Positions 8,592 to 32,000 of a stretch of DNA of 32,000 bases are shown one piece after another. Position numbers and translations under genes: made by a program. A model generated the notes under the pieces. That model made no database searches. It was not told where the DNA came from and worked only from the letters and a program-made list of their open reading frames with translations. The DNA is from Candidatus Electronema halotolerans. Its GTDB lineage: Bacteria > Desulfobacterota > Desulfobulbia > Desulfobulbales > Desulfobulbaceae. How positions within the stretch are numbered: position 1 is the first letter of the stretch; every line of letters begins with the position of its first letter. Location: positions 1,950,001 through 1,982,000 of the forward strand of contig OW818675.1 of NCBI GenBank assembly GCA_942493095.1, given 5' to 3'.

Positions 8592-8598
8592 AAAGACA

Positions 8599-8771: not shown

Positions 8772-8803
8772 TCTGCCTGCTGTCACGCCCTGCGGACTGT
8801 GTC

Positions 8804-11423: not shown

Positions 11424-11439
11424 AGGCATGTTTCTTGCT
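11424..11439 (+). promoter_or_regulatory. sigma-54 (-24/-12) promoter P1
   Basis: aGGCATgtttcTTGCTg: GG at 11425-11426 and GC at 11437-11438, exactly the 12-nt offset of the TGGCAC-N5-TTGC consensus, about 30 nt upstream of the pseudopilin start. Confidence 0.7.
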
Positions 11440-11469
11440 GAAACTTTCAACAAGAATAATGCAATCGTC

Positions 11470-11973: not shown

Positions 11974-11993
11974 CTCAAGTAACAGTTTTGAAT

Positions 11994-12009
11994 CGGCATG
12001 TTCTTTGCT
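11994..12009 (+). promoter_or_regulatory. sigma-54 (-24/-12) promoter P2
   Basis: cGGCATgttctTTGCTg: GG at 11995-11996 and GC at 12007-12008, the same 12-nt offset. It is a near-copy of P1. Confidence 0.7.
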
Positions 12010-12047
12010 GAAATTTTCAACAGAAATAATGCAATCAAAATAAGGTC

Positions 12048-12614: not shown

Positions 12615-12644
12615 GAAGGCAGCAACTTTTTCAAGAGTGCTAAG

Positions 12645-13325: not shown

Positions 13326-13338
13326 AGGTTGCGAAACA

Positions 13339-13836: not shown

Positions 13837-13849
13837 GAAGGCGACTTTC

Positions 13850-14530: not shown

Positions 14531-14596
14531 CGGCAGCAAAGGTTTGAGGATTTTCAAGATTGACGCGATGAGCGCGGATTCTTAGGAGGGAAGATT

Positions 14597-17500
14597 ATGA
14601 AAAAAATATGTTGCGCAGCCTTGTTCGGCCTGACCGGAGCAGTTCTGCTTCCGGCGGCTGGCCTTGCCGCCAATGTCTGCGGCCAAGGCGTTGGCATTCC
14701 ACCTTTTCTGTCCTCTGGGGCCAAGCCCAACCTGCTGATGGTGCTGGACAACTCCGGCTCCATGCTGGATGCGGCCTACACTGACACCACGTACTGTAGC
14801 GACGGTTCCACATGCAATACTAATACTGGCAAATGTACTGACGGCAGCGAATGCGGCGCATTCTGCTTTGATGACACCTATGACAAAGACACAACCTATG
14901 CCGGTTATTTCCAGAATGACCAGTGGTATGTATGGACTGAGGGCACCTATAAGCCGTGGGTGAACGGCAAAACTGATTATAAGAAAGGAGACAGGGTTTA
15001 TGTCCAAGGTGTCATTTGGGAGGCTAATAATGACGGCACCTCCAGCGGCACCTCGCCTGATGATGATGCCAATGTGATTTGGAGCAAAGTTTTTTCCATA
15101 CCAAAATGGAAAAATGGCGCAACCTACAGCAAAGATGACATAGTCTGGTCCGGGCCGCAGCTCTACAAGGCATTGAACGCAGGAACCAGCACAGACTCCA
15201 ATCCTGTTGACGGAACCAATCTTGAAGGCAGCAATACAACCAATGTGACATGGGAGGCTGTTGATTCCACATGGCTGAACGGCAAAGAATACGGAGCAGG
15301 TGATATTGTTGCCTATAGAGGTGTGCTGTATGAAACTGCTGCTGGCGGCACATCTAACGGCACCAGCGTTTATGACGACACCGGTGTTATTTGGAATTCT
15401 TTGGATGAGGGTTCTTTTGTCGCTGTCAGCATGAGCGGGGCGCAGACCGCCTGCTCGACAGCTCCAGGAGCCACGAACAAATATACGAACGGCGAACTCT
15501 GCATCAGCCTTAACACAACTCCTGAGCCGGACCAAGTTGCCGCCTTTGCGGCACGGGGCAATCTGCTCAACTGGGCTGCGGCTTCCAAATTTGATGTGGA
15601 GAAGAAAATTCTCACAGGCGGCAAGTACAATTACAAGGAACAGTTCTTGGTCAGCGAGCACCGGGGCTGCTCCGGCTCGCGTCTGATCAAGCAGATTCAG
15701 ATAGCTGGCGCAGGCACTGCGGATACAGCTGACGATAAGTTCCTCAGTCTCGGAGTGCGCAGCTCGCGCTACAGTGATGCCCCGCTTTATGAAGATCGGA
15801 TTGACAGCACAGATGATACTGGACGGCTGGAAGTGCTGGCAATTACGAACAAGGGGTATCAAATGTCTGATAAATGTCAATATGCTATTGACAAGATCGC
15901 GAAAAATGATGGTGATTTGAACGGCACGCAAAATGCGATTGACCAATGCATCACCAGTTTTCCAAGCTCTAACAGCAAGCTGACCGACATGCGGCCTGCG
16001 CTCAATCACAGTCTGCAGGCTTGCTGGCAGGATGACCCAACGACAGATGTTTTTGAAATCAACAACGGAAAATTCAAAAGCCTCGTAGATGCCTGCTGGG
16101 CACTGTACACGGGCGAGGGAAATGGTCAGCTCTCCACGGATGGACGGAAATACGATCCGGCGGAACTTCGTCCGGCGGATGGTGGGCCATATATTTGCTA
16201 TGGTTTGTATGATTCAGGCGTGGATGCAGAAAACAGGACTGGTTACATAGGCCGCGTCTGGAATACGCTTGGAGAGGGCAGCTCCATGACCTGCAATCCT
16301 TGGAAACCAAGCGATGTGCCTTATACCTGTCCTGGCAGTGCAACTACCTGTTATTGGGAATACAATGCTGACAATCAACCTGTAGCTGTCGCAATAACAA
16401 AGGACGGCGAGCCAGCCTATAAGAACGATGGCAATATGGTTTACAAATGCACCTCTTGGCTCAAAGGCGAGTGTAAAGACAATGGCTTGGAGCAGGTGTA
16501 CAAACGTTCTGACGGGGCGTTTTATTATGATGATTCAACCTGCGGCATTTCTGAAGGCAGTACGACAGGCTCTGACTGGGAGAATCCAGATTGGGCTGAC
16601 TCCCCTGCTGATCCGACCAACAACGGCATTGTCCAAGCGATCAAAGATTACTGCGATGCCCTGCGAATACCAGAGGTCATTGATCCTTCTGATGCCGCCG
16701 GAAAAACAAGCTCAACCGGTGGCATGCCGGGACTGCTCAGGGATTCCGAGCTGATGGCTTTTCTGGGCGGCGGCGAACCGCTGGCAACCATGAAAAGCTA
16801 TATCTATCAGGCCAAGCGGCCAGAGGGCGTGGTGCATCGGGTGGCCGGTGATTTACGGCTTGGCGTGATGTCCTTCCGGTACGTGGGCGCAAAAACTGAA
16901 TGCGATCTTGCGGAAACGGATTCCAAGATTGAGAAGTACTGTCCGCTGAACAACATGGATGGTGCCTTGCTCCGCACCCCGCTGGAAGTGGGCGACTATG
17001 TCACAGACAGCGATGACTCAAGCTATGAGAGCGGCAAGCGGCGGCATGTCGATGATCTGGCCGAGGCGATCAACACCACGCGGGGCACTTCATGGACACC
17101 GCTGGCTGAGGCCATGTACGAGGCTATAGGCTATTACACCCAGAACATCAACTTCTGTCTGAATAAGGATGCCAGCACAGGGGAGTGCATGGATTTTCCG
17201 ACAGCGGACAATCCAGCTTATTTCCCCACCGTGACAAAGTCTGATCCGATTCAGTACTGGTGCCAGGACAATCATATCTTGGTGATCACCGAGGGCGAGT
17301 CCACAGCGGATATCAACGAGCAGGTGAAAAAACTCTCCGGGCAGGTGAAAGAGGATGATCCGCATATCCTTTCAAAGAACTGCCCCGGCACCTGCACAAC
17401 ACACGGCCAAGAGAGCGGCTGTCTGTCCGGTCCGTTAGATAAGTTGAAGAGCGGCGATGGGGATGACCCGGACGGTGACGGAGCGGATAACACTGTTTGT

Positions 17501-20500
17501 AATGACGGTCTTTACACCAGCTCTTATTTGGACAACATGACATGGCTGGGGCAGAACGTCCAGCCGCTGTACAAAAACCGCTGCGTTGACGATGCGGCCA
17601 AAGAGACTAAGACCGAAAAACAGGCTATTTTCACACACGTGGTCACCACCGGTACGCTGCTGAATGATGGAGCCGGCGAATGCAACCCGGAAACCCTGAT
17701 GGAGCAGGCCGCAATAAACGGCGGCACTAACGATTATTATCCGGGCGAGAATCCGCAGCAGCTGGAGGACAATCTCTACGCTGTCTTTGATGACATCCTC
17801 AGCCGCTCTTCGGCTGGTTCAGCGGCATCGGTCATCTCCAGCTCCAGAAGTGGTGCCGGCGCAGTCTATCAGGCGGTGTTCTGGCCCAAATTTGATGACG
17901 GAGACCCGGACGGAGACGGCACAAGCAACAAAGTGAGCTGGGTCGGTGATGTTCATTCCCTCTTTGTCAGCTCCAAGGGCCTGATGTATGATGACTGGAA
18001 TCAAAACGGCAAGCTGGATGAGGGCAGCGGTGACAACCGGATTCTCTTCTATTTCAGCAATGCGGCCAACAAAACCAGAGGCTGCTATGACGCGGATGCG
18101 GTTGTCGCCACTGGCCAATGTTCTGAACCAGAGGCGAATGGAGACGACCTCGTTCCTGAATGTTCTGCCAAGAATGGCTGCGGGCCTGATCAAGACTGCA
18201 AATGCGTCGAGCTGCAGGACATCAAATACCTGTGGTCGGCAAACAAGAATCTCGCGGACAGGGATGTTGCCAAGGACCGCAAGCTGTTCACATGGAATGA
18301 CTTTAACAATAACGGCATGGTTGATACGGATGAATGGTTCCAGCTCAATGACTCTGTTGACTGGACCGCGTTGGACAATGAGGCTGCCAAAGCCAATCCT
18401 CCCCGTGGGCCAGTGAGCAATGATTTCCTCAAAGAGGACGATATTGAGGATTTTGTCGCCTACGATGCTAGCAGCGACATGAAGAGCAACGCTCTCAAAA
18501 CCTTGACGCTCTGGCTGCAAGGGGTTGATGTGCTGCCTGATCCGACGACCGGGGATGTGACAGTGACTGACACGGACAACAACACGTGGAATGCCAAAGA
18601 GCTGCGGTCAAGAAAGTTCACCTTCCAGACCACAGCGACGGTTGGCGGCACAGAAGTTTCAGGGTATGCCGACAAAACATGGCGGCTGGGCGACATCATC
18701 CATTCCACACCGATGGTTGTGGCCAAGCCTGCTGAACTCTATCATTACATCTACCGTGATCCGACCTACAACAGCTTTGCAACGAAATGGAACGACCGCC
18801 GCAACATGATTTATTTCGGCGGCAATGACGGCATGCTTCATGCGGTGAACGGCGGCTTCTTTTACAACAATCAGTTCTGCTGCACTCCGTTTGACAGCGA
18901 CGGCACTTGCCCGTCTGAGCCGGAAAACGGCGTTTGCGATGGTCATCCTGATCTTGGCGAAGAACTGTGGGCCTACATTCCCTACAATCTTCAGCCTCAT
19001 CTGAAATGTCTGGCTGACAAGTTCTATGCCCACAAGTCCTATGTTGATCTGAAGCCGCGCATTTTTGATGTGCAGATATTTAAAGAAGATGCGACGCATC
19101 CCGGCGGCTGGGGCACCATACTGGTCGGCGGCATGTACTTTGGTGGTACCCCGGTGGCAGCTGTGGATTTGAATGACACCGCGAATGACAACCGGAAATT
19201 CATCTCCGCCTACTTTGTCCTTGACATCACTGATCCTGGAAGTGATCCTGTGCTGCTCGGTGAGATGACGCAGACTCTCAAGAAGGACAGCGACGGAAAC
19301 CTGATCCAAGACGGCAGCGGAAACTACGTGGATGAATATGCGGACATGCAGTACACCGCCTCCTCGCCGTCCATGATCATCATGCGTAAGGGCGGAGCGA
19401 ATGATGTCAAATCACAATGGTATCTGACGCTTGGCAGCGGTCCGGCAGATATGGACGGGGCCAACAACAGCGGCGCGCAGGGCAAGCTGGCGGTCATCCC
19501 GCTCGACTGGATGGAAGGCGGAGTGACAAGCTGGACCAAAGGTGTGCCGACCAATGTCAGCGATGTCTCTAAAAAACCGTTCCGCATTCCTAATGAAAAA
19601 CCTAAGGCCGGTTCCCAAGGCGGCACCTTCCCTGTTCCTTGGCCAAACAACGACAGCACCAGCGCCAGCTCCATCTCTGATATTATCTCTATCGATTACA
19701 ATATCGATCTGTCCTCAGCAGGCGACGACCTCGGTGCGCGGTACTGCACAGATGCCATCTATTTCGGCACTGTGGATGGCACTGACTTTGAGAAATATCC
19801 GTCCAGCTATCTTGACGGCGCAGCAGACCAGTTCTACTGGAACGGAGGCGGCAGAGTCTTCCGGTTAGTCACCAAGATAATGACCAGCAAGGAGGACACC
19901 AACAACAACAACCAGTTGGATGAGGGCGAAGACACCAATAACAACGGTGTCTTGGATACCTATGTTGAAGCCGCATCGCTCCCGTCAGAGTGGGCGGGCA
20001 AATGGGATGACGGAAATCCGCTGCGGCTGCTGGCTGATGTTGGAATGCCGGTTGTCGGCGCGCAGTCTGTCGGCTACGACAACTGGAATTACTGGGTCTA
20101 TGCGGGCACAGGGCGCTTCTTTGGCGAGAAGGACAAGACGGATGACGGCTGGTGTCTCAGTGCTGACTGCTCGGACAAAGGGGACAGAAGCAAAGCTGCC
20201 ATCTTTGGCCTCAAAGAGCCGCTGATGGATAAAATATCCGGCTTTGATAACTGGACTGCCGCTCACACACCGTTAAGCTCGTCCTTCACCTGTGCGGACA
20301 GGGTGATGACATGGGCAACAATCAATTGGGATATCAACGTTGACAGCAACGATGAACTGCCCAAAAATGTCTCTTCCTCTGATCCTCCAGCTCCTTCAAA
20401 CAACAAAGCCGGGGAGCGCGGTCTGATGCGGACAGACAATATTCTCGTGGATAACACGGGGGCTTTGTACTGTTATTACTGCGCGACAGACCTCGCCGAC

Positions 20501-21145
20501 CCATCTCTGTACCAATGCGGCAAAACAGATGGATTGACTGGCGCGACTCTGGATGATGGAGATTGCTTTCCTGGCGGCACAAACGGGCTGATCTGGGATG
20601 CGACTAACGGGCGTTACGCCTTTGACAATCTCCAAAGGTACATTGCCGGAGAGGCTTTCAATCCAACAGGAAATGGGCAAGGGTGCATTGAGAATACCGG
20701 AACTGGCTTGGACGGCTGGTATCACGCCTTCCATGATCCCCGCGAACGGAATCTCGGTGCTTCGGCCCTGCTGGGCGGTCTGCTGACCTTCACCACCTAT
20801 CAGCCTTATAACGACAAGTGCCAAGCTGAGGGCCAGAGCTATCTGTACGGCATTCACTTCCAGACCGGCACAGCTTGGACAGAGACGGTCTTCGGCACCT
20901 TTGACGAGAATTTGAGCAACGGAAGTGACAGCGCCAGCAAGAAAACTGTTGTTAAAGACAAGCTGAGTCTGGGCCGGGGTCTGTCCACCACCCCCAGCAT
21001 GCATGTCGGCAGCGACAGCGACAATGATGCCAAGGCCTTCATTCAGACCAGCACCGGGGAGATCATTGAGGTCGAGCAGAAAAACCTGCCTATCACAGCC
21101 GGAAGAAGCGGCAGGCAGAACTGGAATGACCGCCTGAGCAAATAA
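14597..21145 (+). CDS. pilY1: giant PilY1-like pilus tip adhesin (signal peptide, expanded vWA region, C-terminal PilY1/PilC beta-propeller)
   Basis: 2182 aa. AGGAGGG RBS. Signal peptide MKKICCAALFGLTGAVLLPAAGLAA. vWA MIDAS elements are VLDNSGSM (aa 49-56), TPLAEAMYEAIGYY and ILVITEGESTAD. PilY1 propeller hallmarks from about aa 1362 are WRLGDIIHSTPMVV, IYFGGNDGMLHAVNG, ELWAYIP, YFVLDITDP, AIYFGT, WVYAGTGRF, and GWYHAF...ERNLGASALLGGLLTFTTYQP...C..EGQSYLYGI. Confidence 0.9.
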   Translation: MKKICCAALFGLTGAVLLPAAGLAANVCGQGVGIPPFLSSGAKPNLLMVLDNSGSMLDAAYTDTTYCSDGSTCNTNTGKCTDGSECGAFCFDDTYDKDTTYAGYFQNDQWYVWTEGTYKPWVNGKTDYKKGDRVYVQGVIWEANNDGTSSGTSPDDDANVIWSKVFSIPKWKNGATYSKDDIVWSGPQLYKALNAGTSTDSNPVDGTNLEGSNTTNVTWEAVDSTWLNGKEYGAGDIVAYRGVLYETAAGGTSNGTSVYDDTGVIWNSLDEGSFVAVSMSGAQTACSTAPGATNKYTNGELCISLNTTPEPDQVAAFAARGNLLNWAAASKFDVEKKILTGGKYNYKEQFLVSEHRGCSGSRLIKQIQIAGAGTADTADDKFLSLGVRSSRYSDAPLYEDRIDSTDDTGRLEVLAITNKGYQMSDKCQYAIDKIAKNDGDLNGTQNAIDQCITSFPSSNSKLTDMRPALNHSLQACWQDDPTTDVFEINNGKFKSLVDACWALYTGEGNGQLSTDGRKYDPAELRPADGGPYICYGLYDSGVDAENRTGYIGRVWNTLGEGSSMTCNPWKPSDVPYTCPGSATTCYWEYNADNQPVAVAITKDGEPAYKNDGNMVYKCTSWLKGECKDNGLEQVYKRSDGAFYYDDSTCGISEGSTTGSDWENPDWADSPADPTNNGIVQAIKDYCDALRIPEVIDPSDAAGKTSSTGGMPGLLRDSELMAFLGGGEPLATMKSYIYQAKRPEGVVHRVAGDLRLGVMSFRYVGAKTECDLAETDSKIEKYCPLNNMDGALLRTPLEVGDYVTDSDDSSYESGKRRHVDDLAEAINTTRGTSWTPLAEAMYEAIGYYTQNINFCLNKDASTGECMDFPTADNPAYFPTVTKSDPIQYWCQDNHILVITEGESTADINEQVKKLSGQVKEDDPHILSKNCPGTCTTHGQESGCLSGPLDKLKSGDGDDPDGDGADNTVCNDGLYTSSYLDNMTWLGQNVQPLYKNRCVDDAAKETKTEKQAIFTHVVTTGTLLNDGAGECNPETLMEQAAINGGTNDYYPGENPQQLEDNLYAVFDDILSRSSAGSAASVISSSRSGAGAVYQAVFWPKFDDGDPDGDGTSNKVSWVGDVHSLFVSSKGLMYDDWNQNGKLDEGSGDNRILFYFSNAANKTRGCYDADAVVATGQCSEPEANGDDLVPECSAKNGCGPDQDCKCVELQDIKYLWSANKNLADRDVAKDRKLFTWNDFNNNGMVDTDEWFQLNDSVDWTALDNEAAKANPPRGPVSNDFLKEDDIEDFVAYDASSDMKSNALKTLTLWLQGVDVLPDPTTGDVTVTDTDNNTWNAKELRSRKFTFQTTATVGGTEVSGYADKTWRLGDIIHSTPMVVAKPAELYHYIYRDPTYNSFATKWNDRRNMIYFGGNDGMLHAVNGGFFYNNQFCCTPFDSDGTCPSEPENGVCDGHPDLGEELWAYIPYNLQPHLKCLADKFYAHKSYVDLKPRIFDVQIFKEDATHPGGWGTILVGGMYFGGTPVAAVDLNDTANDNRKFISAYFVLDITDPGSDPVLLGEMTQTLKKDSDGNLIQDGSGNYVDEYADMQYTASSPSMIIMRKGGANDVKSQWYLTLGSGPADMDGANNSGAQGKLAVIPLDWMEGGVTSWTKGVPTNVSDVSKKPFRIPNEKPKAGSQGGTFPVPWPNNDSTSASSISDIISIDYNIDLSSAGDDLGARYCTDAIYFGTVDGTDFEKYPSSYLDGAADQFYWNGGGRVFRLVTKIMTSKEDTNNNNQLDEGEDTNNNGVLDTYVEAASLPSEWAGKWDDGNPLRLLADVGMPVVGAQSVGYDNWNYWVYAGTGRFFGEKDKTDDGWCLSADCSDKGDRSKAAIFGLKEPLMDKISGFDNWTAAHTPLSSSFTCADRVMTWATINWDINVDSNDELPKNVSSSDPPAPSNNKAGERGLMRTDNILVDNTGALYCYYCATDLADPSLYQCGKTDGLTGATLDDGDCFPGGTNGLIWDATNGRYAFDNLQRYIAGEAFNPTGNGQGCIENTGTGLDGWYHAFHDPRERNLGASALLGGLLTFTTYQPYNDKCQAEGQSYLYGIHFQTGTAWTETVFGTFDENLSNGSDSASKKTVVKDKLSLGRGLSTTPSMHVGSDSDNDAKAFIQTSTGEIIEVEQKNLPITAGRSGRQNWNDRLSK

Positions 21146-22701: not shown

Positions 22702-23919
22702 TCAGCCGCTGGCGCGCAGCAGCACAATGGCGTGGGCGCTGATGCCTTCGCCCCGACCAGTATAGCCCATTCTCTCCGTGGTTGTCGCCTTGATATTGAG
22801 CTGCTCCGCTGCGCAGACGGTGCTGAGATTGCTCTGCATGGCCGGAATATGCGGGGCCAGCTTGGGCTGCTGGCAGATGACGGTGATGTCGGCATTGATG
22901 ATGCGCATCTGGCGCGCCCTGACCAAGTCCATGACCCGCGCCAGCAGGATAAGGCTGTCCGCGCCCCGGTACTGCTCATCTGTGTCCGGGAAATGACGGC
23001 CTATGTCTCCCTCGCCCAGTGCGCCAAGGATGGCATCCATCAGGGCATGAACCAAGACATCCGCATCTGAATGCCCTTGCAGGCCAAGATGATAGGGAAT
23101 GTCCACCCCGCCGAGAATCAGCTTGCGTCCAGCAACCAAGCGGTGCGCGTCAAAGCCTTGGCCAATGCGCATGATGCGCTCCTTTTCTTGCAGCAGCCCG
23201 GCAGCGATGCGCAGATCATCGGGCCGGGTAATCTTGATGTTTTCCTCACTGCCCATGACCACAGCCACCGGAATGCCCGCATGTTCAAGCAGAGATGCCT
23301 CGTCCGTGCCGAGAAAGCCGTCCACCTCAACCTGCTTGCATGCCTGCTCCAGCAGCTCCCGCCTCATGCCCTGCGGAGTCTGGGCCTGCCAGAGCGAACT
23401 GCGGTCAACAGTGCGAGTTATGCAATTATTCGCAACTTCCTTCAGGGTGTCTTTGACCGGCACCGCCGCAATCACGGCCCCGTGCTCTTCCATGCCAGAT
23501 AAACAGCGGTCAATGACTGCAGCACTGACCAAGGGCCGGGCTGCGTCATGCACTAAAATGCGCGCAACTGCAGCGGGCAAAGCCTGCAAGCCATTGCGCA
23601 CTGAGGCTTGGCGCGTCTCGCCGCCTGCGGTAAAAAGGAGCTTGCTCCGCTGGGCTGGGCTGAGATAAGGACGGAGCAGGTCTGCCCCAAACTGAAGCTG
23701 ATCCGGCGGCAGGACAGCGACAACTGCGCTGACCGCAGGATGATCAAGAAAGACCAGCAGGGTTCGGGCCAGCACCGGCATTCCGGCCAGCTCCAGAAAC
23801 TGCTTGGGCTGGTCTGTGTGCATGCGGCGGCCAAAACCGGCAGCAGGGATGATGATGCCGAGAATGCCGGGCTGAGATGGAATATTGCAAAACCAGCGAA
23901 GTTCCTTGCCTGTGGCCAT
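22702..23919 (-). CDS. ispDF: bifunctional 2-C-methyl-D-erythritol 4-phosphate cytidylyltransferase / MEcPP synthase
   Basis: N-terminal IspD motif IIPAAGFGRRM...KQFLEL. C-terminal IspF motifs RIGQGFDAHRL, GHSDADVLVHALMDAILGA and ITVICQQPKL. Confidence 0.93.
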   Translation of the reverse strand: MATGKELRWFCNIPSQPGILGIIIPAAGFGRRMHTDQPKQFLELAGMPVLARTLLVFLDHPAVSAVVAVLPPDQLQFGADLLRPYLSPAQRSKLLFTAGGETRQASVRNGLQALPAAVARILVHDAARPLVSAAVIDRCLSGMEEHGAVIAAVPVKDTLKEVANNCITRTVDRSSLWQAQTPQGMRRELLEQACKQVEVDGFLGTDEASLLEHAGIPVAVVMGSEENIKITRPDDLRIAAGLLQEKERIMRIGQGFDAHRLVAGRKLILGGVDIPYHLGLQGHSDADVLVHALMDAILGALGEGDIGRHFPDTDEQYRGADSLILLARVMDLVRARQMRIINADITVICQQPKLAPHIPAMQSNLSTVCAAEQLNIKATTTERMGYTGRGEGISAHAIVLLRASG

Positions 23920-25625
23920 CAGAAATCAAACCTCCAAATTCCCGCAGCAATATCCGCCATCCGCTTCTGCCGGGATTCAACCTTCTGCTCATCCCAGCTG
24001 TCGTAATGCTCGGCCACAGCCTGCGTCATCTTGAATGCGCTGCGCTGATACACGGCCCGCTTCGTTTGATAGTCCTTATTGCCAAGTTCCCGGTTGCGGC
24101 TGGTTTCAAGCGGAGTCATGTTGCCAAGCCGGTATTTCATCCGCTCCTGTTTCGCTTCCTCAATGACAGACCATGCCTCTGACGGATGCTCAGGAAGGAT
24201 GTGCTCAATGCTGTAGGTCGCGCTTTCAACGTCAAACTCCTGCTGATACTTCTGCCGTTCAATTTCAAAAAGAATATAGCGCACGATCTTCTTGTTCCGG
24301 CTGAACGAAGTTCGCAGTTCCTTTTCCGCAAAGGCTGTTTTGAACAGGCTGTCGTCAGGATAGACTGCTCCCAAGGCAGCAAGCAACGCTGCCGTGCTCG
24401 CATACTTTTTGTCGGAGACATTGCGGGCAATCTCGTTGTACAGCCGCTCTTGATCATGTGTCGGGAGATTGCAGATCACGTTGTAACGGAAAGATGCGAT
24501 TGTGACCGCCCGCATGATGCGGGTGAACACCGCCCGTTCCGCTTCATAATACCGCTCATAGCAGGCCATGAGCATGGCTAACGGCTGCCGCACTTTGAAC
24601 ATCATCAATTGCCGAAGATACTGCCGCTCATCAGCGCTCCAAGCAGCATCCTGCGGATCACGGAGAGCCGCATACACTGCGGCGGCCTGATCTAAATCCC
24701 GCAGCAACTGAAATGCTGTCTCCCGTGAGTTGATCTGTTTTCGGATAGTCTTGAACAGTTCAGACTTCCTGACCAATCTGTTGCGGCTGTTCCAAAAAAT
24801 CCGCAGAAACTCAGGAAAGCTCTCGCTGCCCAACAGGTCAACGATTCCCTCCCAGCGTTCTTCAAGCGAGGTCATCTCGACTTCATGCTCGGTCTCTCTG
24901 CTGATAATGGAAAACAGATAATTTTTCAGCAGATCAGTTGCCGACAGCCGCACTCCCCGCGCATTGAGCGTTTCAAAGACCGTGAAGGCGTTCAGCTCGT
25001 CAGTCACCGAGATGACCGTGAAAAAGAGCTTGTCCGCCAGCATCTCGACAAACTCGGCCAGCTTCCTGCCGCTCGCCTCTGTGGTTCCGCAGTGCTTTTT
25101 GATGCGCTCCTTGAACCAGATGAACGCCTTTCTCAGCTTATGCTCAGAGGCGTTCAAGCGCCGCTGGGGTATTTTTCCCAGCGGAACCAGATAGGTCTGA
25201 TAAAAGCGGTTGTTGTGCCGGTTCAACTCCAGCTTGGAATGCGACACCAAGCTCACCGGATCAAGATAACCGATGTAGCTGTTCCGCAATTGCTCCGCCC
25301 GTCTGCGGTTGTTGTCCGTATCTGCACCTGATGCAGACATATCCTCAAGCAGACTCAGGCTGGCCAGCACCAGCACGCTGAGAGTCGTCAGCCGCTGCTG
25401 GCCGTCAATGATGGCAAACCGTTTGCTGTCCGAGGACTGCAGCACCAGATATCCCATGTAATGGGCTGGCTCGCCGTCTTCCTCAAGGAGACCGAGCATG
25501 TCCAGCCAGAGGTCATCCCACTCCTCCTCTGTCCACGAGTAGTCGCGCTGAAAAGGCGGCACCCGGTAGCTGAGACCATTGCCCAGCAGCTGGCGGAAGG
25601 TGTTGTTGGCGGTGTTGAAATTCAT
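23919..25625 (-). CDS. DUF262 + DUF1524 protein (GmrSD-family, type IV restriction-like nuclease)
   Basis: 568 aa. N-terminal DUF262 signature YRVPPFQRDYSWTEEEW and DGQQRLTT. C-terminal His-Me/HNH-like DUF1524 signature IEHILPEHP...LGNMTPLETSRNRELGNKDY. Its stop shares one nucleotide with the ispDF ATG (TGATG). Confidence 0.8.
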   Translation of the reverse strand: MNFNTANNTFRQLLGNGLSYRVPPFQRDYSWTEEEWDDLWLDMLGLLEEDGEPAHYMGYLVLQSSDSKRFAIIDGQQRLTTLSVLVLASLSLLEDMSASGADTDNNRRRAEQLRNSYIGYLDPVSLVSHSKLELNRHNNRFYQTYLVPLGKIPQRRLNASEHKLRKAFIWFKERIKKHCGTTEASGRKLAEFVEMLADKLFFTVISVTDELNAFTVFETLNARGVRLSATDLLKNYLFSIISRETEHEVEMTSLEERWEGIVDLLGSESFPEFLRIFWNSRNRLVRKSELFKTIRKQINSRETAFQLLRDLDQAAAVYAALRDPQDAAWSADERQYLRQLMMFKVRQPLAMLMACYERYYEAERAVFTRIMRAVTIASFRYNVICNLPTHDQERLYNEIARNVSDKKYASTAALLAALGAVYPDDSLFKTAFAEKELRTSFSRNKKIVRYILFEIERQKYQQEFDVESATYSIEHILPEHPSEAWSVIEEAKQERMKYRLGNMTPLETSRNRELGNKDYQTKRAVYQRSAFKMTQAVAEHYDSWDEQKVESRQKRMADIAAGIWRFDF

Positions 25626-25643: not shown

Positions 25644-26234
25644 CTACAGCCGCAGCACCACATGCACCACATCCGGGTCTTCGCCGCTCGTGCTGATATT
25701 GAAGCCGAGCTTGGCAGCCAGGGTGAGCATGTCATTATTAGTAGAGAGCACATCGCCTTCCATGAGCTGCAAACCATGACTGCGGGCCGCAGCAAGGAGT
25801 TGCTGCATGAGCAGATGGGCAATGCCTTGCCGCTGCCATTCATCGGCCACGACAATGGCGAATTCGCAGCTCCGGCCATCCGGGTTGATGCTGTAGCGGG
25901 CCAGCATCTGCGGACTGAGTTCGTCAATCGCCTGCATGAAGCGGAAATACTTGCTCTGCTCAGAGAGATTGCGGACAAATTCCTGCTCCATGTCCGCATC
26001 CTCTGGCCGGATGGGCCGGATGACCATGTCCATGCCATTGGGCAGCTGCCGCTTGGTGACAAAATGGGCTGGATACGGATAAATAGCCATGTGGCTGTAG
26101 CGGTCGGAAGTCATCGCGTGAAAATCAACCACGATCCGCGCATCCACGGCCATTGCCCCGTGCTCATCGACAATCAGGGGGTTGATGTCCAGCTCCTTGA
26201 CCAAGGGCAGCTCGCAGGCGATTTCCGAGACCCG
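25644..26234 (-). repeat. direct repeat copy A of the pat 3' end
   Basis: Manual alignment to 28759-29439: about 17 mismatches in 25644-25842, 1 mismatch in 25843-26234, plus a 90-nt gap. Confidence 0.9.
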
Positions 26235-26249
26235 CAGAGACAGTGTCAA
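25644..26249 (-). pseudogene. displaced 3' fragment of the pat (acyl-CoA synthetase-like/GNAT acetyltransferase) gene, with an internal 90-nt deletion
   Basis: 591 nt (25644-26234) align to 28759-29439 of the intact gene. There is only a TTG 'start', no RBS, and the homology begins mid-domain. 30 codons of the GNAT core (FTQIDYSREMGLISVVHGAEDKEKQIGVAR) are missing. Confidence 0.8.
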
Positions 26250-26260
26250 GATGCAAAATA

Positions 26261-26956
26261 TTACAATACTCTGTAGAGAAATACTTCATGGGGGACAGAA
26301 CAGCCGTTCAGCAGTTTTCTATGTGTATATTTTTGACGATCAAGGATCGTGAACTGTTCCTGCTTATCCATCCATTGCAAAATTTCTTGTCTATTCTTAT
26401 GAAAAGGATCATCAACTAAATTAAAAGCAATATAGGCGGGTTCTTTCAGTAAATCTGTATAAAGCTGATAGTCTTTCAGGGCTAAATGGTTTGCTGCTCC
26501 GCAGATTATTAAGCAGTTGATATTTTTTTTCTTCAGTTCTGACAGGTCATCTTCTGGAAACAAGAAGCATCTGTTATAAATACCGGGCGTATCGCGATTC
26601 AAGGCTTTCAGTGCTTCCGCTGTAATTTCAACACCGGCAAGGTACTGTACAGCGAGGGAAGGACTGTCGATTATTTTCTTTCCCATAAGTCCGCTGCCAC
26701 AGGCAATGTCTGCTATTCTCAGAGGCAGTCTTTTGGGGATAAAGGAGATCAGAATTTTTTCAATGGCATCATAAACCCCACATTTCAAAAAATCTACAAT
26801 CAGTTGACGATAAAGATCAGGATAACTGTAGAGGAACGGGTAATCCCAAATATGAAATTCCCTGCTCGTCCCATCTGAAAACTGCACTTCAAGCAGTTCG
26901 TCCCCCTGCTTTCCTGTTCTGATGCTGCTGAACATATACATACGATTATTGCACAT
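26261..26956 (-). CDS. class I SAM-dependent methyltransferase (substrate unknown)
   Basis: 231 aa. Motif I region RIADIACGSGLMGKKI. AT-rich. Overlaps the upstream PLP-enzyme gene by 11 nt. Confidence 0.65.
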   Translation of the reverse strand: MCNNRMYMFSSIRTGKQGDELLEVQFSDGTSREFHIWDYPFLYSYPDLYRQLIVDFLKCGVYDAIEKILISFIPKRLPLRIADIACGSGLMGKKIIDSPSLAVQYLAGVEITAEALKALNRDTPGIYNRCFLFPEDDLSELKKKNINCLIICGAANHLALKDYQLYTDLLKEPAYIAFNLVDDPFHKNRQEILQWMDKQEQFTILDRQKYTHRKLLNGCSVPHEVFLYRVL

Positions 26957-27908
26957 CTATCTTCTGCTCCTGTAGAAAATCAGGATTATATATTTTTGAC
27001 AAATACTTGATACCGTGATCGTAGAGGATGGTGATAATAACTCCTTTATCTATCTGTTTGCTCAATTTTTGACAGGCAGCAAGATTCAATCCACTGCTGC
27101 CGCCGACAAAGAATCCTTCTGTTTTTGCAAGCTGGTGACAGCAATTGACTGCCTCCTTATCAGAAATATCAATCACATCATCAATTAAAGAGAAATCAGT
27201 ACAGCTTGTTGGCTTCATTTTTCCCGCTCCTTCAATAAGGTATTTCTTTTTTTTGGAGATTTTAACAGACTGTTTTCTGTATTTTCGATAATGTCCGGAA
27301 AGGCATGAATGCAGAGGATCGGCAAGTATCACCTTAATGTCTCTATTTTTCTCCTTTAGATATCGTGCTGTTCCAGCAATGCAGCCAAAGGTTGAAGAAG
27401 TCATGACTAGAAAGTTCACCTTTCCACAACTTTGCTTCCATATTTCAGGACCAAGAGAGGAATAGTAGGCGTACGGGTTGTCAGGATTGTCATACTGATT
27501 AATATCAAAATAGCCATTTCTTTTTGCAAGTTCCATTGCATATTCTATATAGTCATCTGTCACAATAAGACGGGCGTTAAAAGCTCGAATATGATCCTGC
27601 TTTTCGCGACTGCATTTTTCAGAGGTGACAATAACCACCTTGTATCCTTTCACTGCTCCCAGCATCGCGAGACTCAACCCGGTATTCCCGCTTGAAGCGC
27701 ATATAACTGTGTCCCCTGGATGAAGTTTTTTTTCACATTCAGCTCGCAGTAAGATATATTTAATCATACGATCTTTCATGCTCAGGCCGGGATTCATAAA
27801 TTCACACTTTGCATAGAGCGAAACAGACCTGTCCAGTATTGAACTCAAATCAACCAACGGAGTGTTTCCGATGAGATCAACAAGTTTTTTTGGAGCCGGG
27901 ACAATCAT
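26946..27908 (-). CDS. PLP-dependent cysteine synthase/cystathionine beta-synthase family enzyme (CysK/CysM/SbnA-like)
   Basis: 320 aa. IGNTPLVDL, PLP-lysine motif NPGLSMKDR, asparagine-loop SSGNTGLSLA, C-terminal GGSSG. The usual glycine-rich phosphate loop (GxGTGGT) reads TSSTFGCIAG. Confidence 0.85.
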   Translation of the reverse strand: MIVPAPKKLVDLIGNTPLVDLSSILDRSVSLYAKCEFMNPGLSMKDRMIKYILLRAECEKKLHPGDTVICASSGNTGLSLAMLGAVKGYKVVIVTSEKCSREKQDHIRAFNARLIVTDDYIEYAMELAKRNGYFDINQYDNPDNPYAYYSSLGPEIWKQSCGKVNFLVMTSSTFGCIAGTARYLKEKNRDIKVILADPLHSCLSGHYRKYRKQSVKISKKKKYLIEGAGKMKPTSCTDFSLIDDVIDISDKEAVNCCHQLAKTEGFFVGGSSGLNLAACQKLSKQIDKGVIITILYDHGIKYLSKIYNPDFLQEQKIDVQ

Positions 27909-28639
27909 CCTGCATTCCTCCTGAACTCTATAACGTAAATTTTTTTATTCCATTCACCGTTCTTTTTGCTGATTTCACGCCGTTGCCGCTCGTCTTCAGA
28001 CATTTTTCCGACAGCAGGATAAAAAATTTGCCGGAGAGGCACTATAGCTGCGCATTTTTTTACCACAGTCAGGCCACGGTCTCCAGCATCTTTCAGAATA
28101 TTATCAGGCAGCAATACTGATGATATCCCCAGATAGGCGCGGGTTTGCCTATGCAGGCATGAGGCCAGCCATTCTGTAAACTGATCAATCAAATGTCGTC
28201 CGTCAGCTCCTCCGTCACGAAAAATACGTTCCCGACCATCTCTGTATGTATCAATGGGAACCAAGTCCGTCGGTAGCTGCGGCGGATTGAAAAAAATCGC
28301 ATCTATCTGATATTGAGACAGTTCAATGTCTTGGAAAGGTGTATTGAGCAGCCTGTATGCAGACTCCGGGATACGATGACGCTGTAGATTTCGCTGCGTT
28401 AAACGAATAGCATCCTTCTGGAGATCGTTAAAATAAACAAAGCCGCTCCCGTTGAGCAGCGCGTACAGACCGACAATACCGCTTCCGCAGCCGATATCCA
28501 GCAGACATCTCGGGCAATCAAAAGACAGGGCTTCGCACATCAGTCTGCTGAATGGGGTTTTGTCTGGGATGCCTTCATTACCGTACAGATGAACAGCATC
28601 AAAACATGCACCCCTAACGCCTTTTTTTTCTTTGTTCAT
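27905..28639 (-). CDS. SAM-dependent methyltransferase of the HemK/'MTS' small-domain type with an NPPQ motif IV
   Basis: 244 aa. Motif I LLDIGCGSGIVG, acidic loop YFNDL, motif IV IFFNPPQLP (a variant of (D/N)PP(Y/F)), then RDGGADGRHLIDQF. ATGA overlap with the downstream PLP-enzyme gene. Confidence 0.7.
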   Translation of the reverse strand: MNKEKKGVRGACFDAVHLYGNEGIPDKTPFSRLMCEALSFDCPRCLLDIGCGSGIVGLYALLNGSGFVYFNDLQKDAIRLTQRNLQRHRIPESAYRLLNTPFQDIELSQYQIDAIFFNPPQLPTDLVPIDTYRDGRERIFRDGGADGRHLIDQFTEWLASCLHRQTRAYLGISSVLLPDNILKDAGDRGLTVVKKCAAIVPLRQIFYPAVGKMSEDERQRREISKKNGEWNKKIYVIEFRRNAG

Positions 28640-28694
28640 GATAACAGGCTTTCAATATGCTTGCAGGTAAAAAAACAGAAAACACAAGTCATCT

Positions 28695-28728
28695 CGTTCC
28701 AACGCTCAAGCATGTCAGCGTTGGAACG
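28695..28728 (-). terminator. 12-bp perfect hairpin downstream of pat (putative terminator)
   Basis: cgttccaacgct (28695-28706) and agcgttggaacg (28717-28728) are exact reverse complements, 30 nt after the pat stop. A U-rich tract follows, but the U7 run is about 20 nt away, so this is non-canonical. Confidence 0.4.
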
Positions 28729-28758
28729 CATGAACCATGCCACCAAATTGCGGCAGCT

Positions 28759-29439
28759 TTAGAGCCGCAGCACCACATGGACCACATCCGGGTCTTCATC
28801 GCTGTTGCTGATGTTGAAGCCGAGTTTGGCCGCCAAGGTGAGCATGTCATTATTAGTAGAGAGCACATCGCCTTCCATGAGCCGCAAACCATGACTGCGG
28901 GCTGCGGCAAGGAGCTGCTGCATGAGCAGATGGGCAATGCCCTGCCGCTGCCATTCGTCGGCCACGACAATGGCGAATTCGCAGCTCCGGCCATCCGGGT
29001 TGATGCTGTAGCGGGCCACGCCGATCTGTTTTTCCTTGTCCTCCGCACCATGCACCACGGAAATCAGCCCCATCTCCCGGCTGTAGTCGATCTGGGTGAA
29101 GCGGGCCAGCATCTGCGGACTGAGTTCGTCAATCGCCTGCATGAAGCGGAAATACTTGCTCTGCTCAGAGAGATTGCGGACAAATTCCTGCTCCATGTCC
29201 GCATCCTCTGGCCGGATGGGCCGGATGACCATGTCCATGCCATTGGGCAGCTGCCGCTTGGTGACAAAATGGGCTGGATATGGATAAATAGCCATGTGGC
29301 TGTAGCGGTCGGAAGTCATCGCGTGAAAATCAACCACGATCCGCGCATCCACGGCCATTGCCCCGTGCTCATCGACAATCAGGGGGTTGATGTCCAGCTC
29401 CTTGACCAAGGGCAGCTCGCAGGCGATTTCCGAGACCCG
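28759..29439 (-). repeat. direct repeat copy B of the pat 3' end (inside the intact gene)
   Basis: See copy A. The homology ends abruptly at 29439/26234 and at the stop codons (TAA versus TAG). Confidence 0.9.
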
Positions 29440-31437
29440 GAGCAGGACATGCTCCAAGGCTTCCATGTCAACCTTGGGCATGTGCCGGAACGCGCCCAGC
29501 AGCTTGAAAACTCTGGTGCTCTGAATCAGGTCTTGGACCAAGCGGCGATTGAGCGGCGGCAGGGTCACGGCCCGGTCGCCCATCACCTCGACCGAAATGC
29601 CGCCCGCGCCAAAGGTGATCACCGGGCCAAAGACCGGGTCTGTGACCAAGCCGACCAGCAGCTCCCGGCCATTGGGCCGCTGAAGCATGGGCTGAATGGT
29701 CACGCCGTCAATGCGGGCTTCGGGCCGGTTCCGGCGCACCTCGGCCAGCATCTCGTTGTAGGCGCTGCGGGCTGCCTGGGCATTGCTGATCCCAAGCCGC
29801 ACGCCGCCCGCATCTGACTTGTGGGTGATGTCGGGCGAATTGATTTTCAGGGCCACGGGAAAGCCGATGGTCTCAGCCTGGACCAAGGCCTCGTTGGGCG
29901 AGCGGACTATGCTGGCCGGAGTGGTCGGAATATGGAAAGCATGCAGCACCGCCTTGGACTCAGCCTCACTGAGCACCTTGCGGCCCTCTGCCAGCACGCT
30001 CTCGATGATCAGGCGCGCCCCTTCCACATCCGGTGCCCTGTCCCGCGAGATCGGCCCCGGCGTTTCCAACAGCAGCTTCTGGTTCCGGCCATGATTGACC
30101 AAGTAGGAAAAGGCATCCACCGCTGTTTCCGGGGTGTTGAAGGTCGGGATGTTGGCATCGCGGAAAATGCGGCGGCCTTCGCCAACCTGAATTTCCCCCA
30201 TCCAGCAGGTCAGGAGCGGCTTTTTGCCCGTGTTCAGCTCGACCAGTGACTGGGCCACGCCTGCCGGGTCGGTCATGGCCTGCGGAGTGAGAATGACCAG
30301 CAGACCATCGACATTGGGATCATCCATGCAGATGGACACAGCTTGGGCATAGCGTTCCGGGGTCGCATCACCAATAATGTCAACCGGATTGCTGTGCGAC
30401 CACGTTGCAGGCAGGACTTCGTTCAGCCGCTTCATGGTCTCTTTGGACAGCTCGGCCAAAGGTAGGCCCAGATCAGCCAGCCGGTCTGTGGCCATCACCC
30501 CTGGGCCGCCGCCATTGGTGACAATTGCCAGCCGGTCGCCATCCGCCTTAGTCGGAAAGGTCAGGATGGCGGCGGCAGAGAAGAGATTGGCGATGCGCAG
30601 GCCGCGCACCACCCCTGCCCGCCGCAAGGCGCTGTCAAACACGTCATCCGCCCCGACCAGTGCGCCGGTGTGCGACATGGCCGCCTTGGAGCCGCTGGCG
30701 TGCCGTCCCACTTTCAAGGCAATGACCGGCTTGAAGCGGGCCGCTGCCCGCAGGCCGCTCATAAAGGACAAGGCGTTGTGAATGCCTTCGATATACAGCA
30801 AGATGCTCTTGGTCTTGGGGTCATTGACTAAGTAATCGAGCACATCGCCAAAGTCGATGTCGGCGGAAATGCCGGTCGAAACCACAGCGGAAAAGCCGAT
30901 CTTGTTGGCAGCAGCCCAGTCAAGAATGGCCGTGCAGAGCGCGCCGGACTGCGAAACAAGGGCAATATTGCCCGGCGCGGCCACGCCCTTGTTGAAGGTG
31001 CAGTTCAGACCGGTGGCAGGCCGCATGATGCCGAGGCAGTTTGGCCCGACAAAGCGCAGGCCGTGGCGGCGGGCGTTCTCCAAGACCGCCTGCTCCAGTT
31101 TCAGGCCCTGCTGCCCGACCTCGCGGAAACCTGCTGAGATGATCACTGCCGAGCGGATGCCGTAGCTGCCGCAGGCTTCGATAATGGCAGGCACGGTTGC
31201 CGCCGGAGTGGTGATCACGGCCAGATCAACCGGCTGGCCAAGGCTCTTCAGGTCAGGATAGGCTTTGCGGCCTTGCACCTCCTCGTGCTTGGGGTTGACC
31301 GGAAAGACCTCGCCCTTGAAGCCGCCTTCAATCATGTTTTTGAAGACCAGATTGCCCACCGCCCCTTCGCGGTCGCTGGCACCGAAGACCGCGACTGAGC
31401 GCGGTTCAAACAGCTTGTTGAGATAGTGCTTGCCCAT
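28759..31437 (-). CDS. pat: Pat-type bifunctional NDP-forming acyl-CoA synthetase-like / GNAT protein acetyltransferase
   Basis: 892 aa. N-terminal CoA-binding/succinyl-CoA-synthetase-like region (PRSVAVFGASDREGAVGN...VNPK...VGPNCLG), ATP-grasp middle region, C-terminal GNAT (IVVADEWQRQGIAHLLM). AAGGAA RBS. Confidence 0.88.
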   Translation of the reverse strand: MGKHYLNKLFEPRSVAVFGASDREGAVGNLVFKNMIEGGFKGEVFPVNPKHEEVQGRKAYPDLKSLGQPVDLAVITTPAATVPAIIEACGSYGIRSAVIISAGFREVGQQGLKLEQAVLENARRHGLRFVGPNCLGIMRPATGLNCTFNKGVAAPGNIALVSQSGALCTAILDWAAANKIGFSAVVSTGISADIDFGDVLDYLVNDPKTKSILLYIEGIHNALSFMSGLRAAARFKPVIALKVGRHASGSKAAMSHTGALVGADDVFDSALRRAGVVRGLRIANLFSAAAILTFPTKADGDRLAIVTNGGGPGVMATDRLADLGLPLAELSKETMKRLNEVLPATWSHSNPVDIIGDATPERYAQAVSICMDDPNVDGLLVILTPQAMTDPAGVAQSLVELNTGKKPLLTCWMGEIQVGEGRRIFRDANIPTFNTPETAVDAFSYLVNHGRNQKLLLETPGPISRDRAPDVEGARLIIESVLAEGRKVLSEAESKAVLHAFHIPTTPASIVRSPNEALVQAETIGFPVALKINSPDITHKSDAGGVRLGISNAQAARSAYNEMLAEVRRNRPEARIDGVTIQPMLQRPNGRELLVGLVTDPVFGPVITFGAGGISVEVMGDRAVTLPPLNRRLVQDLIQSTRVFKLLGAFRHMPKVDMEALEHVLLRVSEIACELPLVKELDINPLIVDEHGAMAVDARIVVDFHAMTSDRYSHMAIYPYPAHFVTKRQLPNGMDMVIRPIRPEDADMEQEFVRNLSEQSKYFRFMQAIDELSPQMLARFTQIDYSREMGLISVVHGAEDKEKQIGVARYSINPDGRSCEFAIVVADEWQRQGIAHLLMQQLLAAARSHGLRLMEGDVLSTNNDMLTLAAKLGFNISNSDEDPDVVHVVLRL

Positions 31438-31474: not shown

Positions 31475-32000
31475 TCAAACCCAGCAATGACGGAAAAACG
31501 ATTTGATTGATTTTGACTTAACCGTTTTCAGAGATATATCATAAGCTTCCATCAGCTCACGCTCTGTTCTCGGCTTCAATTTTCTTATAGTGTTTTTCAT
31601 TACTGACCAGCAGTATTCAATAGGGTTCAGTTCAGGACGATAAGGAGGGAGGAAAATGATCTTCGCTCCTGTACTTCTGATCAAAGCGAGAGCTTCTTTG
31701 TTTTTATGAGGACTGGCATTGTCAAGAACGACTGTCTTGCTGCTGTCAAGATATTTCAAAAGATAATTTTTTATATAGAAATAAAAGACATCTCCTGTCA
31801 TGGTGCCTTTAAATTTCATGCACTTCAATATTTTTCCAAACTTTACAGCTCCTATCATGCTTATTCTTTTCCCTTTACCTGAAGGTCTTTTTGAAAAAGC
31901 TCTTGTTCCTTTTCTTGATCTTGCAAATTTTCTCGACATGTTCAAACAGCATCCTGTCTCATCAATAAAGATGAAATTCTTTTTGTCAGCCTCGAGCAGG
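31475..32000 (-). mobile_element. IS630/Tc1-mariner family DDE transposase (C-terminal catalytic part; runs off the right edge)
   Basis: The frame stays open to the window edge: LLEADKKNFIFIDETGCCLNMSRKF...VVLDNASPHKN...IFLPPYRPELNPIEYCWSVMK. These are the DDE_3 motifs (DE..., D..., PPYSPELNPIE-like). AT-rich relative to pat. Confidence 0.85.

Follow-up and report, generated by a model that had tools for sequence, protein, structure and literature searches.

A compact methyltransferase, PLP enzyme and methyltransferase cassette in Candidatus Electronema halotolerans, possibly dedicated to a methylated sulfur amino acid

Introduction

Within the genome of the cable bacterium Candidatus Electronema halotolerans, a stretch of 32,000 nucleotides (assembly GCA_942493095.1, contig OW818675.1, positions 1,950,001 to 1,982,000 of the forward strand; hereafter the window, along which all window positions are counted) carries on its minus strand a trio of consecutive genes, namely (i) MT1 (27905-28639; 244 amino acids (aa); CAK8719253.1), encoding a HemK2/MTQ2-like class I S-adenosylmethionine (SAM) methyltransferase, (ii) PALP (26946-27908; 320 aa; CAK8719248.1, called “cystathionine beta-synthase” at NCBI), encoding a fold-type II pyridoxal phosphate (PLP) enzyme, and (iii) MT2 (26261-26956; 231 aa; CAK8719243.1, “hypothetical protein”), encoding another class I methyltransferase. 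The reading we tentatively favour is that the trio forms a small-molecule pathway methylating a cysteine-derived amino acid, plausibly for use as a compatible solute. Judged from the protein sequences, the cassette would be akin to the operons turning amino acids into methylated solutes, with parts that appear to belong to an unnamed methyltransferase family, an atypical HemK2-like family and an atypical CysK/CapA-like clade.

A first-pass annotation of the window had suggested a beta-replacement reaction followed by methylations. This order of events is now favoured by the genomic context, i.e., the exchange of the PLP enzyme for a cysteine dioxygenase (CDO) at some loci, the channels and importers encountered as neighbours, as well as the relatives and fusions of MT2, whereas the product, the methylated atom and the role of the compound are what we infer. 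The same annotation had not recognised the trio as a described pathway; this still stands, since no curated family cutoff was reached and the literature searched contained no matching pathway, be it a methyltransferase/CysK/methyltransferase or a CDO/methyltransferase one, nor any biosynthesis of cysteine betaine or N-methyltaurine.

The three enzymes of the cassette

PALP matches Pfam PF00291 (E 3e-71) and stays below all NCBIfam cutoffs, the best model being PRK10717 (CysK) with 268 bits for a cutoff of 387. Other CysK/CysM models gave 225 (TIGR01139, cutoff 351), 223 (TIGR01138, cutoff 394) and 240 bits (TIGR01136, cutoff 344), the CapA model NF053679 gave 247 bits (cutoff 600, with the control 9k2p at 621 bits), the cystathionine beta-synthase (CBS) model TIGR01137 gave 244 bits (cutoff 510), the protein ending at 320 aa without CBS domains, and the SbnA model TIGR03945 gave 204 bits (cutoff 350), no SbnB-like gene adjoining any trio. 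Among solved structures, 9k2p comes closest (E 8e-59, 38% identity) and itself scores as a CapA cysteate synthase; beta-cyanoalanine synthase and O-ureido-L-serine synthase are also among the solved relatives. The catalytic lysine (SMK45DR) and the SSGNTG loop are kept in the PALP of all trios, with the exception of one K-D-C variant in a cyanobacterial locus (L016), and the phosphate loop reads S-S/G/A-T-F-G-C in 8 out of 8 trio-type PALPs against GTGGT or GSGGT in two reference enzymes. From these features, PALP would constitute a distinct clade of the CysK/CBS/CapA beta-replacement group, marked by its STFGC phosphate loop. With CapA (NF053679, 9k2p), which catalyses the first step towards capnine sulfonolipids, PALP shares the fold, the catalytic lysine, SSGNTG and a CBS-like C-terminal Y-x-x-K-I-Y tail but differs by STFGC in place of GTGGT, EGAGK in place of EGIGK, several clade-specific cysteines and the lack of CapB/CapC partners. 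With CysK/CysM, the “cysteine synthase A” of PRK10717 and CBS, it has in common all catalytic motifs of the beta-replacement family but comes without a CysE partner, heme domain or CBS domains, sits between two methyltransferases and is dispensable in several lineages.

MT1 matches the MTS family of Pfam (E 3e-8) and also remains far below the NCBIfam cutoffs, where archaeal-type models of HemK2/MTQ2-like proteins fit best, with 39.7 bits for TIGR00537 (cutoff 87), 35.2 bits for TIGR03534 (cutoff 199) and PRK14968/HemK2 equally below. In a Foldseek search with its AlphaFold2 (AF2) model (pLDDT 86), the best matches were N6AMT1/KMT9/HemK2 (E 7e-11, TM(target) up to 0.76), with which the overall fold agrees, followed by METTL5 and PH1948, then by MmtN and carbamoyl N-methyltransferase. 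Across 20 members of the family, the motif FNPPQLPTD has N118, P120, Q121 and L122 invariant and P119 nearly so; the aromatic position of the NPPY/F motif is thus a Gln in every MT1, which departs from the NPPY by which HemK, PrmC, HemK2 and MTQ2 are recognised. Since NPPQ in MT1 and STFGC in PALP are conserved across their respective families, both are family traits and not signs of decay. Compared with HemK2/MTQ2/N6AMT1-KMT9 and bacterial PrmC, the likeness of MT1 lies in motif I (GCGSG), motif IV (N-P-P-x) and the best sequence and structure matches, and the differences lie in NPPQ instead of NPPY/F, a C-terminal extension of 50 aa and genomic partners that are amino-acid enzymes; besides, HemK2/MTQ2/N6AMT1-KMT9 are Trm112-dependent protein Gln/Lys methyltransferases, and no Trm112 is present with MT1. 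MmtN was set aside as a model for MT1, the similarity being one of general fold and the MmtN paper reporting no NPPx-type site.

For MT2, no family of Pfam or NCBIfam exceeded its cutoff. The family is represented by 15 clusters among 5.8 billion proteins and, in an exhaustive hidden Markov model (HMM) search among 1.84 billion, by 10 representatives at E ≤ 1e-30, the wider superfamily in the latter search amounting to 157 members at 1e-10 and 343 at 1e-3. The orthologs exhibit the SAM motif DxACGSGLMG together with invariant W37-D38-Y39 and H212-R213. As such, MT2 appears to be the founding member of a very rare and unnamed class I methyltransferase family. Its structure is of little help as regards function, since the AF2 model, although of high quality (pLDDT 92), retrieved generic class I methyltransferases at a TM of about 0.5 (BioC, NRMT2, UbiG, spermidine synthase), and a profile search of the PDB with MT2 returned nothing below E 0.03. 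A sulfonium-forming enzyme of the DsyG/DSYE type was also discarded, the profiles of MT1 and MT2 reaching no more than 8 bits with GsDsyGD, ZnDsyG and FcDSYE (reference sequences from PMC11306096, supplement 3).

The paralogs of MT2 (about 25% identity) cluster with genes for AlaDh_PNT, SDR, MmgE/PrpD, class II aldolase, TauD, TPP enzyme and aminotransferase proteins, and members of the superfamily are fused either with TauD or with an ABC ATPase, the best model of which is ProV. The contexts of the MT2 relatives are thus small-molecule, amino-acid or onium-compound territory. The paralog cluster itself recurs (L029, 6280-15027; L030, 4096-7694; L006, 8522-13202), one of them originating from Achromatium, and is an apparently undescribed biosynthetic cluster.

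Distribution and mobility of the trio

With MT2 as the marker of the survey, 14 loci were found in a scan of 185,579 species genomes and 7 more in a metagenome scan (loci are designated below by L and a number). As revealed by tblastn and blastp, the order MT1-PALP-MT2 recurs in about nine distant lineages, i.e., in cable bacteria (the window and Electrothrix scaldis, L004), a gammaproteobacterium of Guaymas (L013/L033), three filamentous cyanobacteria (Geitlerinema BBD, L014; Baaleninema simplex PCC 7105, L015; cyanobacterium UBA2566, L016), as well as two further lineages on metagenome contigs (L022/L035 and L023), which takes the arrangement beyond the chance juxtaposition initially considered. 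MT2 was also found as a solitary gene. When the neighbouring open reading frames (ORFs) of 17 loci were clustered all against all, no further gene turned out to be conserved across loci. The hosts are mostly marine or brackish, and those from sulfidic sediments or mats comprise cable bacteria, a multicellular magnetotactic bacterium, Guaymas Basin bacteria and the Geitlerinema of black-band disease. The GC content of the module is lower than that of its flanks in the window, the cyanobacteria, L018 and L028, and is close to the native value in marine hosts that are themselves poor in GC. The trio is self-contained and moves horizontally. A phage or plasmid origin was rejected, as tblastn with MT2 gave zero matches in 50,697 phage and 72,556 plasmid records.

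The PALP gene is frameshifted, reduced to a remnant or absent in six loci (L002, L006, L008, L009, L010 and L032), in all of which MT1 and MT2 persist except for L009, where MT2 stands alone. In L002, which comes from the window organism (sample ERR9669565), the PLP gene at 958-1918 is split into ORFs of 77, 149 and 90 aa, an assembly error being possible, and the rest of the trio is 99-100% identical to that of the window. Given this broken copy and the decayed copies of L006 and L009, the PLP gene would be the expendable part of the cassette, PALP being one possible supplier of the substrate.

The surroundings of the trio vary. In L033, it lies between two P-type ATPases (672 aa, 6943-8961; 682 aa, 12267-14315), with a dCache histidine kinase upstream. 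In Electrothrix scaldis (L004, 6195-20675), it is found amid methionine/SAM-cycle genes, namely a homocysteine S-methyltransferase/MTHFR fusion and a short MetE-like gene, and the same region comprises a phosphonate cluster with PEP mutase, phosphonopyruvate decarboxylase, two methyltransferases and an aminotransferase.

Partners of the methyltransferases at other loci

At three loci, i.e., in a member of the Opitutales (L009), in cyanobacterium ESFC-1 (L018) and in L028, MT2 is accompanied by a CDO_I protein and a second methyltransferase. The latter bears the motif LCNPPF and shares with MT1 its top-ranking NCBIfam models, which are HemK2/MTQ2-like; the pair of CDO and NPPF methyltransferase stands in place of PALP and the NPPQ methyltransferase. 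These CDOs retain Y58, R60, H86, H88, C93, H140, H155 and Y157 of rat CDO, R60 being the residue which binds the carboxylate of cysteine. With the catalytic residues kept, R60 included, they are predicted to oxidise free L-cysteine to cysteine sulfinate. The mammalian Arg-type enzyme CDO1 shares with them the 3-His iron site, R60, the C93-Y157 pair and H155; no enzyme of this type is present in the window, for which it bears solely on the class of substrate. The MT2 of L009 belongs to the clade of cable bacteria (56% identity to the MT2 of the window) and a PALP remnant lies directly upstream of it, which points to an in-situ replacement by the pair of CDO and NPPF methyltransferase; in the MT2 tree, CDO-type loci are scattered among trio-type ones. 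This is most simply read as the PLP enzyme and CDO supplying related substrates. An extra SDMT/DsyG-like methyltransferase is found in L018 (55 bits against a cutoff of 550 for NF041675). In L028, an alkyl sulfatase gene (Lactamase_B and Alkyl_sulf_dimr/C domains; 9832-12132, minus strand) adjoins the CDO-type cassette, a single observation.

Mechanosensitive channels of the MscS family are also encountered. In Baaleninema (L015), the gene immediately preceding MT1, in the same orientation, encodes a channel of 718 aa (MS_channel_2nd, E 3e-15); in ESFC-1 (L018), 646 bp separate the CDO gene from that of a homolog of 736 aa; and in L009, the gene for an MscS-family protein of 1247 aa ends 229 bp before MT2. 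Since a genome contains only a handful of MscS genes, three such canonical adjacencies in about 22 loci would be far above chance, for which a rough estimate gives an expectation near 0.05. Mechanosensitive channels serve as release valves for compatible solutes (PMC5924519). A further protein of 735-753 aa, here called U735, is encoded beside the trio in L004/5 (L004, 10818-13025), L006 (4511-6748) and L022/35 (L035, 5077-7314) and also at the edge of an MT2-paralog cluster (L029, 15963-16741). Its layout is that of the MscS-type neighbours, i.e., a signal peptide, a coiled coil of about 400 aa, three transmembrane (TM) helices and a C-terminal domain of 240 aa (GFGPVRQGEKV...LPLKDL). As for the solitary MT2 genes, their neighbours encode a TRAP solute-binding protein in L020 and an ABC importer in L012.

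A possible route to a methylated sulfur amino acid

In the pathway we tentatively propose, the PLP enzyme would first generate aminoacrylate from O-acetyl- or O-phospho-serine and add a sulfur nucleophile, yielding a cysteine-type amino acid, a step deduced from the fold together with the catalytic residues, which are conserved. A cysteate-like product, formed from sulfite, would be favoured over plain cysteine because the CDO found elsewhere makes cysteine sulfinate, of which cysteate is the closer, near-isosteric structural analogue, and because the closest solved relative of PALP (9k2p) is a cysteate synthase. In a second step, MT1 and MT2 would move methyl groups from SAM onto this amino acid, giving a methylated zwitterion. 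Lastly, as the recurrent neighbours suggest, the product could accumulate as a compatible solute or leave the cell through the large MscS-type channels.

A close precedent in terms of organisation is the GSMT/SDMT operon for glycine betaine, reported for halotolerant microbes (PMC3176816), in which a pair of neighbouring SAM methyltransferases methylates an amino acid step by step until a zwitterionic solute results. MT1 and MT2 do not match GSMT/SDMT (NF041675), and the cassette includes a dedicated precursor-forming enzyme, i.e., the PLP enzyme or CDO. A combination of solute cluster and MscS channel was reportedly described in 2016 by Widderich and colleagues for ectABCD-mscS of Nitrosopumilus maritimus, perhaps as one operon. 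The cassette resembles such clusters in that its enzymes are encoded next to an MscS-type safety valve in L009, L015 and L018, but the enzymes themselves are entirely different, the channels are large and MscK-like (718-1247 aa), and the linkage with a channel is absent in the window. A contribution to the nickel-dithiolene cofactor of cable bacteria was considered and dismissed, the cassette being present in some cable bacteria only and in many bacteria that are not cable bacteria.

Several points weigh against the proposed route. The slightly higher score of PALP against the CysK model than against CapA does not single out sulfite, and the preference for sulfite and cysteate is drawn from analogy. 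We know of no reported natural product that fits N-methylated cysteate or N-methylated cysteine sulfinate, and the literature searches gave none either. A role of MT1 on small molecules would be unusual, considering its best structural matches (N6AMT1/KMT9, METTL5) and that, to our knowledge, (N/D)PPx methyltransferases are known almost solely from the N-methylation of nucleic acids and proteins (Gln/Lys). The canonical MscS adjacency amounts to three loci, of which two are cyanobacterial with channels 53% identical to each other. U735 could not be retained as a proven MscS homolog, with no Pfam match and E-values of 0.45-2.3 to MscS in the PDB; in hhalign, its TM3/beta-domain region aligns with E. 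coli MscS and with the L015 channel, at probabilities of 13% and 1%, respectively, so that the likeness around the TM3/beta-domain junction, suggestive as it is, falls short of significance and is kept as a hint. Finally, the copy of the cassette in the window consists of three enzymes only, without channel, transporter or regulator.

The locus in the window

Between MT1 and PALP, the ATGA stop/start overlap previously reported at 27905-27908 is present, with AGGAGG upstream. The 11-nt overlap of PALP and MT2 (26946-26956), also reported, requires translation of MT2 to start at its first ATG, but all orthologs begin at the position of Met6 (MY..), which corresponds to ATG 26941 and leaves a spacer of 4 nt behind the PALP stop codon; from this alignment of starts, ATG 26941 is probably the true one. 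The genes of the trio are tightly packed with either start. The motifs on which the first-pass annotation relied were all retrieved, i.e., FNPPQLPTD in MT1 as well as SMKDR, SSGNTG and TSSTFGCIAG in PALP, and it was right in that no gene for a serine acetyltransferase, transporter, regulator or NRPS is adjacent to the trio in the window. Scanning the window and six trio loci for RNAs yielded one tRNA only, without riboswitch or RNA regulator.

Upstream of MT1 lies an intact pat-like gene (28759-31437, minus strand), which encodes, according to its Pfam domains, an ADP-forming acyl-CoA synthetase fused to a GNAT domain. A repeat search in the window revealed that the 3' end of this gene (copy A, 28760-29396 or, in its widest extent, 28759-29445, minus strand) is directly repeated with 94-99% identity at 25645-26191, within a 3' fragment of the pat-like gene of about 600 bp bearing a 90-bp deletion (copy B, 25644-26249, minus strand). 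The two copies bracket an insert of 2.5 kb, which carries the trio and has a GC content of 42% against 55% for the remaining window. Direct repeats of this kind are the footprint expected of a single-crossover integration, in which a circle would have carried a pat fragment together with the trio. In short-read assemblies of the same organism, contigs of 2.6 kb contain the trio alone, which fits with assembly breaks at the pat repeats.

From the stop codon of pat to MT1, a hairpin with a 12-bp stem followed by a T-rich tract can be read directly from the sequence (28695-28728, minus strand). As this hairpin is terminator-like, the cassette is probably driven by its own promoter. It was not among the calls of a consensus terminator scan, and a scan of the region for promoters and terminators returned no more matches than shuffled sequence. 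Two long ORFs on the plus strand (25662-26276 and 28657-29817) mirror the pat copies in antisense and are not genes. Immediately upstream of the pat-like gene, a fragment of a DDE_3 (IS630-like) transposase of low GC content (31475-31945, minus strand, 156 aa) suggests that foreign DNA inserts preferentially at the pat locus. Elsewhere in the window, a low-GC block (11428-21145, plus strand, 43-47%) encodes five small proteins with prepilin-type N-termini (..GFSLMELMVVIAMIGIL..) and then a protein of 2182 aa; read from the translations, this block of the cable bacterium is a putative cluster of type IV pilins or pseudopilins.

Alternative functions

Among the alternatives, the one which survives best, although unlikely, is that the trio makes a non-proteinogenic amino acid serving as an exported toxin, signal or antimetabolite, e.g., an N-methylated 2,3-diaminopropionate similar to BMAA or another heteroatom-substituted alanine. 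Enzymes of the CysK fold do produce many beta-substituted alanines, as illustrated by the beta-cyanoalanine and O-ureido-L-serine synthases among the solved relatives of PALP, and the SbnA model reached 204 bits. The natural-product-like clusters of the MT2 paralogs and a sporadic spread driven by horizontal gene transfer, cyanobacteria included, would suit an accessory metabolite, and MscS-like channels can export too, as does MscCG of C. glutamicum. The presence of a true CDO in place of the PLP enzyme nonetheless indicates sulfur chemistry, not nitrogen nucleophiles, and the trio is accompanied neither by an SbnB partner nor by an NRPS, a resistance gene or an exporter of its own.

Quite unlikely is a modification of macromolecules, where MT1 would methylate protein Gln/Lys or a nucleic-acid base, MT2 would add a second mark and the PLP enzyme would be accessory or moonlighting, possibly in connection with the neighbouring nuclease. 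The top sequence and structure matches of MT1 (HemK, N6AMT1/KMT9, METTL5, PH1948) and, among the weak structural matches of MT2, the N-terminal protein methyltransferases NRMT2/NTMT1B point in this direction, as do the proximity of a GmrSD/HEC-06 gene in the window and a PADLOC match to the methyltransferase domain of mad2 (E 3e-16), but Gln replaces the stacking aromatic of NPPY/F in every MT1, no target-recognition domain is present and the partners found elsewhere are enzymes of free amino acids (CysK-like, Arg-type CDO), channels and importers. The nuclease in question is a GmrSD-type gene (DUF262/DUF1524; 23919-25625, minus strand) identified by PADLOC as HEC-06 (E 4e-238) and initially placed about 0.6 kb downstream, which was measured as 636 bp, the gap being filled by the 3' fragment of pat, which the first-pass annotation had overlooked. 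The tie that had been proposed between the trio and this nuclease is not supported: across 17 and more loci, neither GmrSD nor another nuclease is a conserved neighbour, the adjacency of GmrSD being confined to the window among the 17 loci; the pat remnant lies in between; and the phage and plasmid records contain no homolog. PADLOC also matched mad2 with MT1 (E 3e-16) and MT2 (E 0.005) over part of the model only (about 274-414 of 492); membership in MADS was rejected, since the match aligns residues 25-177 with positions 274-401 of 492 of the profile and no other MADS component was matched. A link with defence or restriction-modification was likewise rejected, GmrSD being a stand-alone HEC-06 and the neighbours elsewhere being channels, CDO, transporters and housekeeping genes. 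In its own right, the GmrSD gene, whose product matches HEC-06 over almost its full length, with a GC content of 52-57% slightly under that of core genes and located between the pat remnant and ispDF, is a candidate single-gene defence system.

Very unlikely, at last, is a detoxification or volatilisation in which the methyltransferases would turn HS-/RSH (or HSe-) stepwise into methylated volatiles and the PLP enzyme would trap sulfide or methanethiol, a substrate CysK enzymes accept, as cysteine or S-methylcysteine: many hosts do live in sulfidic sediments or mats and the S-methyltransferase MmtN is among the structural matches of MT1, but N-methylation is what the (N/D)PPx motif usually goes with, CDO requires a free amino-acid thiol and is at odds with a pathway removing thiols by methylation, volatile products would need neither mechanosensitive channels nor importers, and MT2 has no specific similarity to the S-methyltransferases DsyG/DSYE.

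Significance

In the genome paper for Ca. Electronema halotolerans, no pathway for making osmolytes was reported from cable bacteria (PMC10030654), which makes the cassette, read as a route to a methylated sulfur amino acid, a candidate to fill this gap. In its most complete and, taken as a whole, rather unlikely form, this reading would have the cassette yield a hitherto undescribed organosulfur compatible solute, i.e., an N-methylated cysteate/cysteine-sulfinate “sulfo-betaine,” obtained either by the oxygen-independent PLP route from sulfite or by the oxygen-dependent CDO route from cysteine, vented via dedicated MscK-like channels, and spreading horizontally in sulfidic marine mats and sediments as the missing osmolyte pathway which let the freshwater Electronema lineage enter salt water.

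If the cassette does make a methylated sulfur amino acid, it would do so in a new and compact way and offer a candidate explanation for the salt tolerance of Ca. Electronema halotolerans as well as both an oxygen-dependent and an oxygen-independent answer to one and the same precursor problem. With a length of 2.4 kb and two hosts in culture, namely Baaleninema simplex PCC 7105 and, for the CDO variant, the filamentous cyanobacterium ESFC-1, the cassette is directly testable. Its carriers are ecologically prominent and mostly uncultured, i.e., cable bacteria, multicellular magnetotactic bacteria, sulfur bacteria of Guaymas and cyanobacteria of coral black-band disease, and marine organosulfur and osmolyte biochemistry would gain a compound together with two enzyme families, namely MT2 and the HemK2-like enzymes of the NPPQ type with small molecules as substrates.

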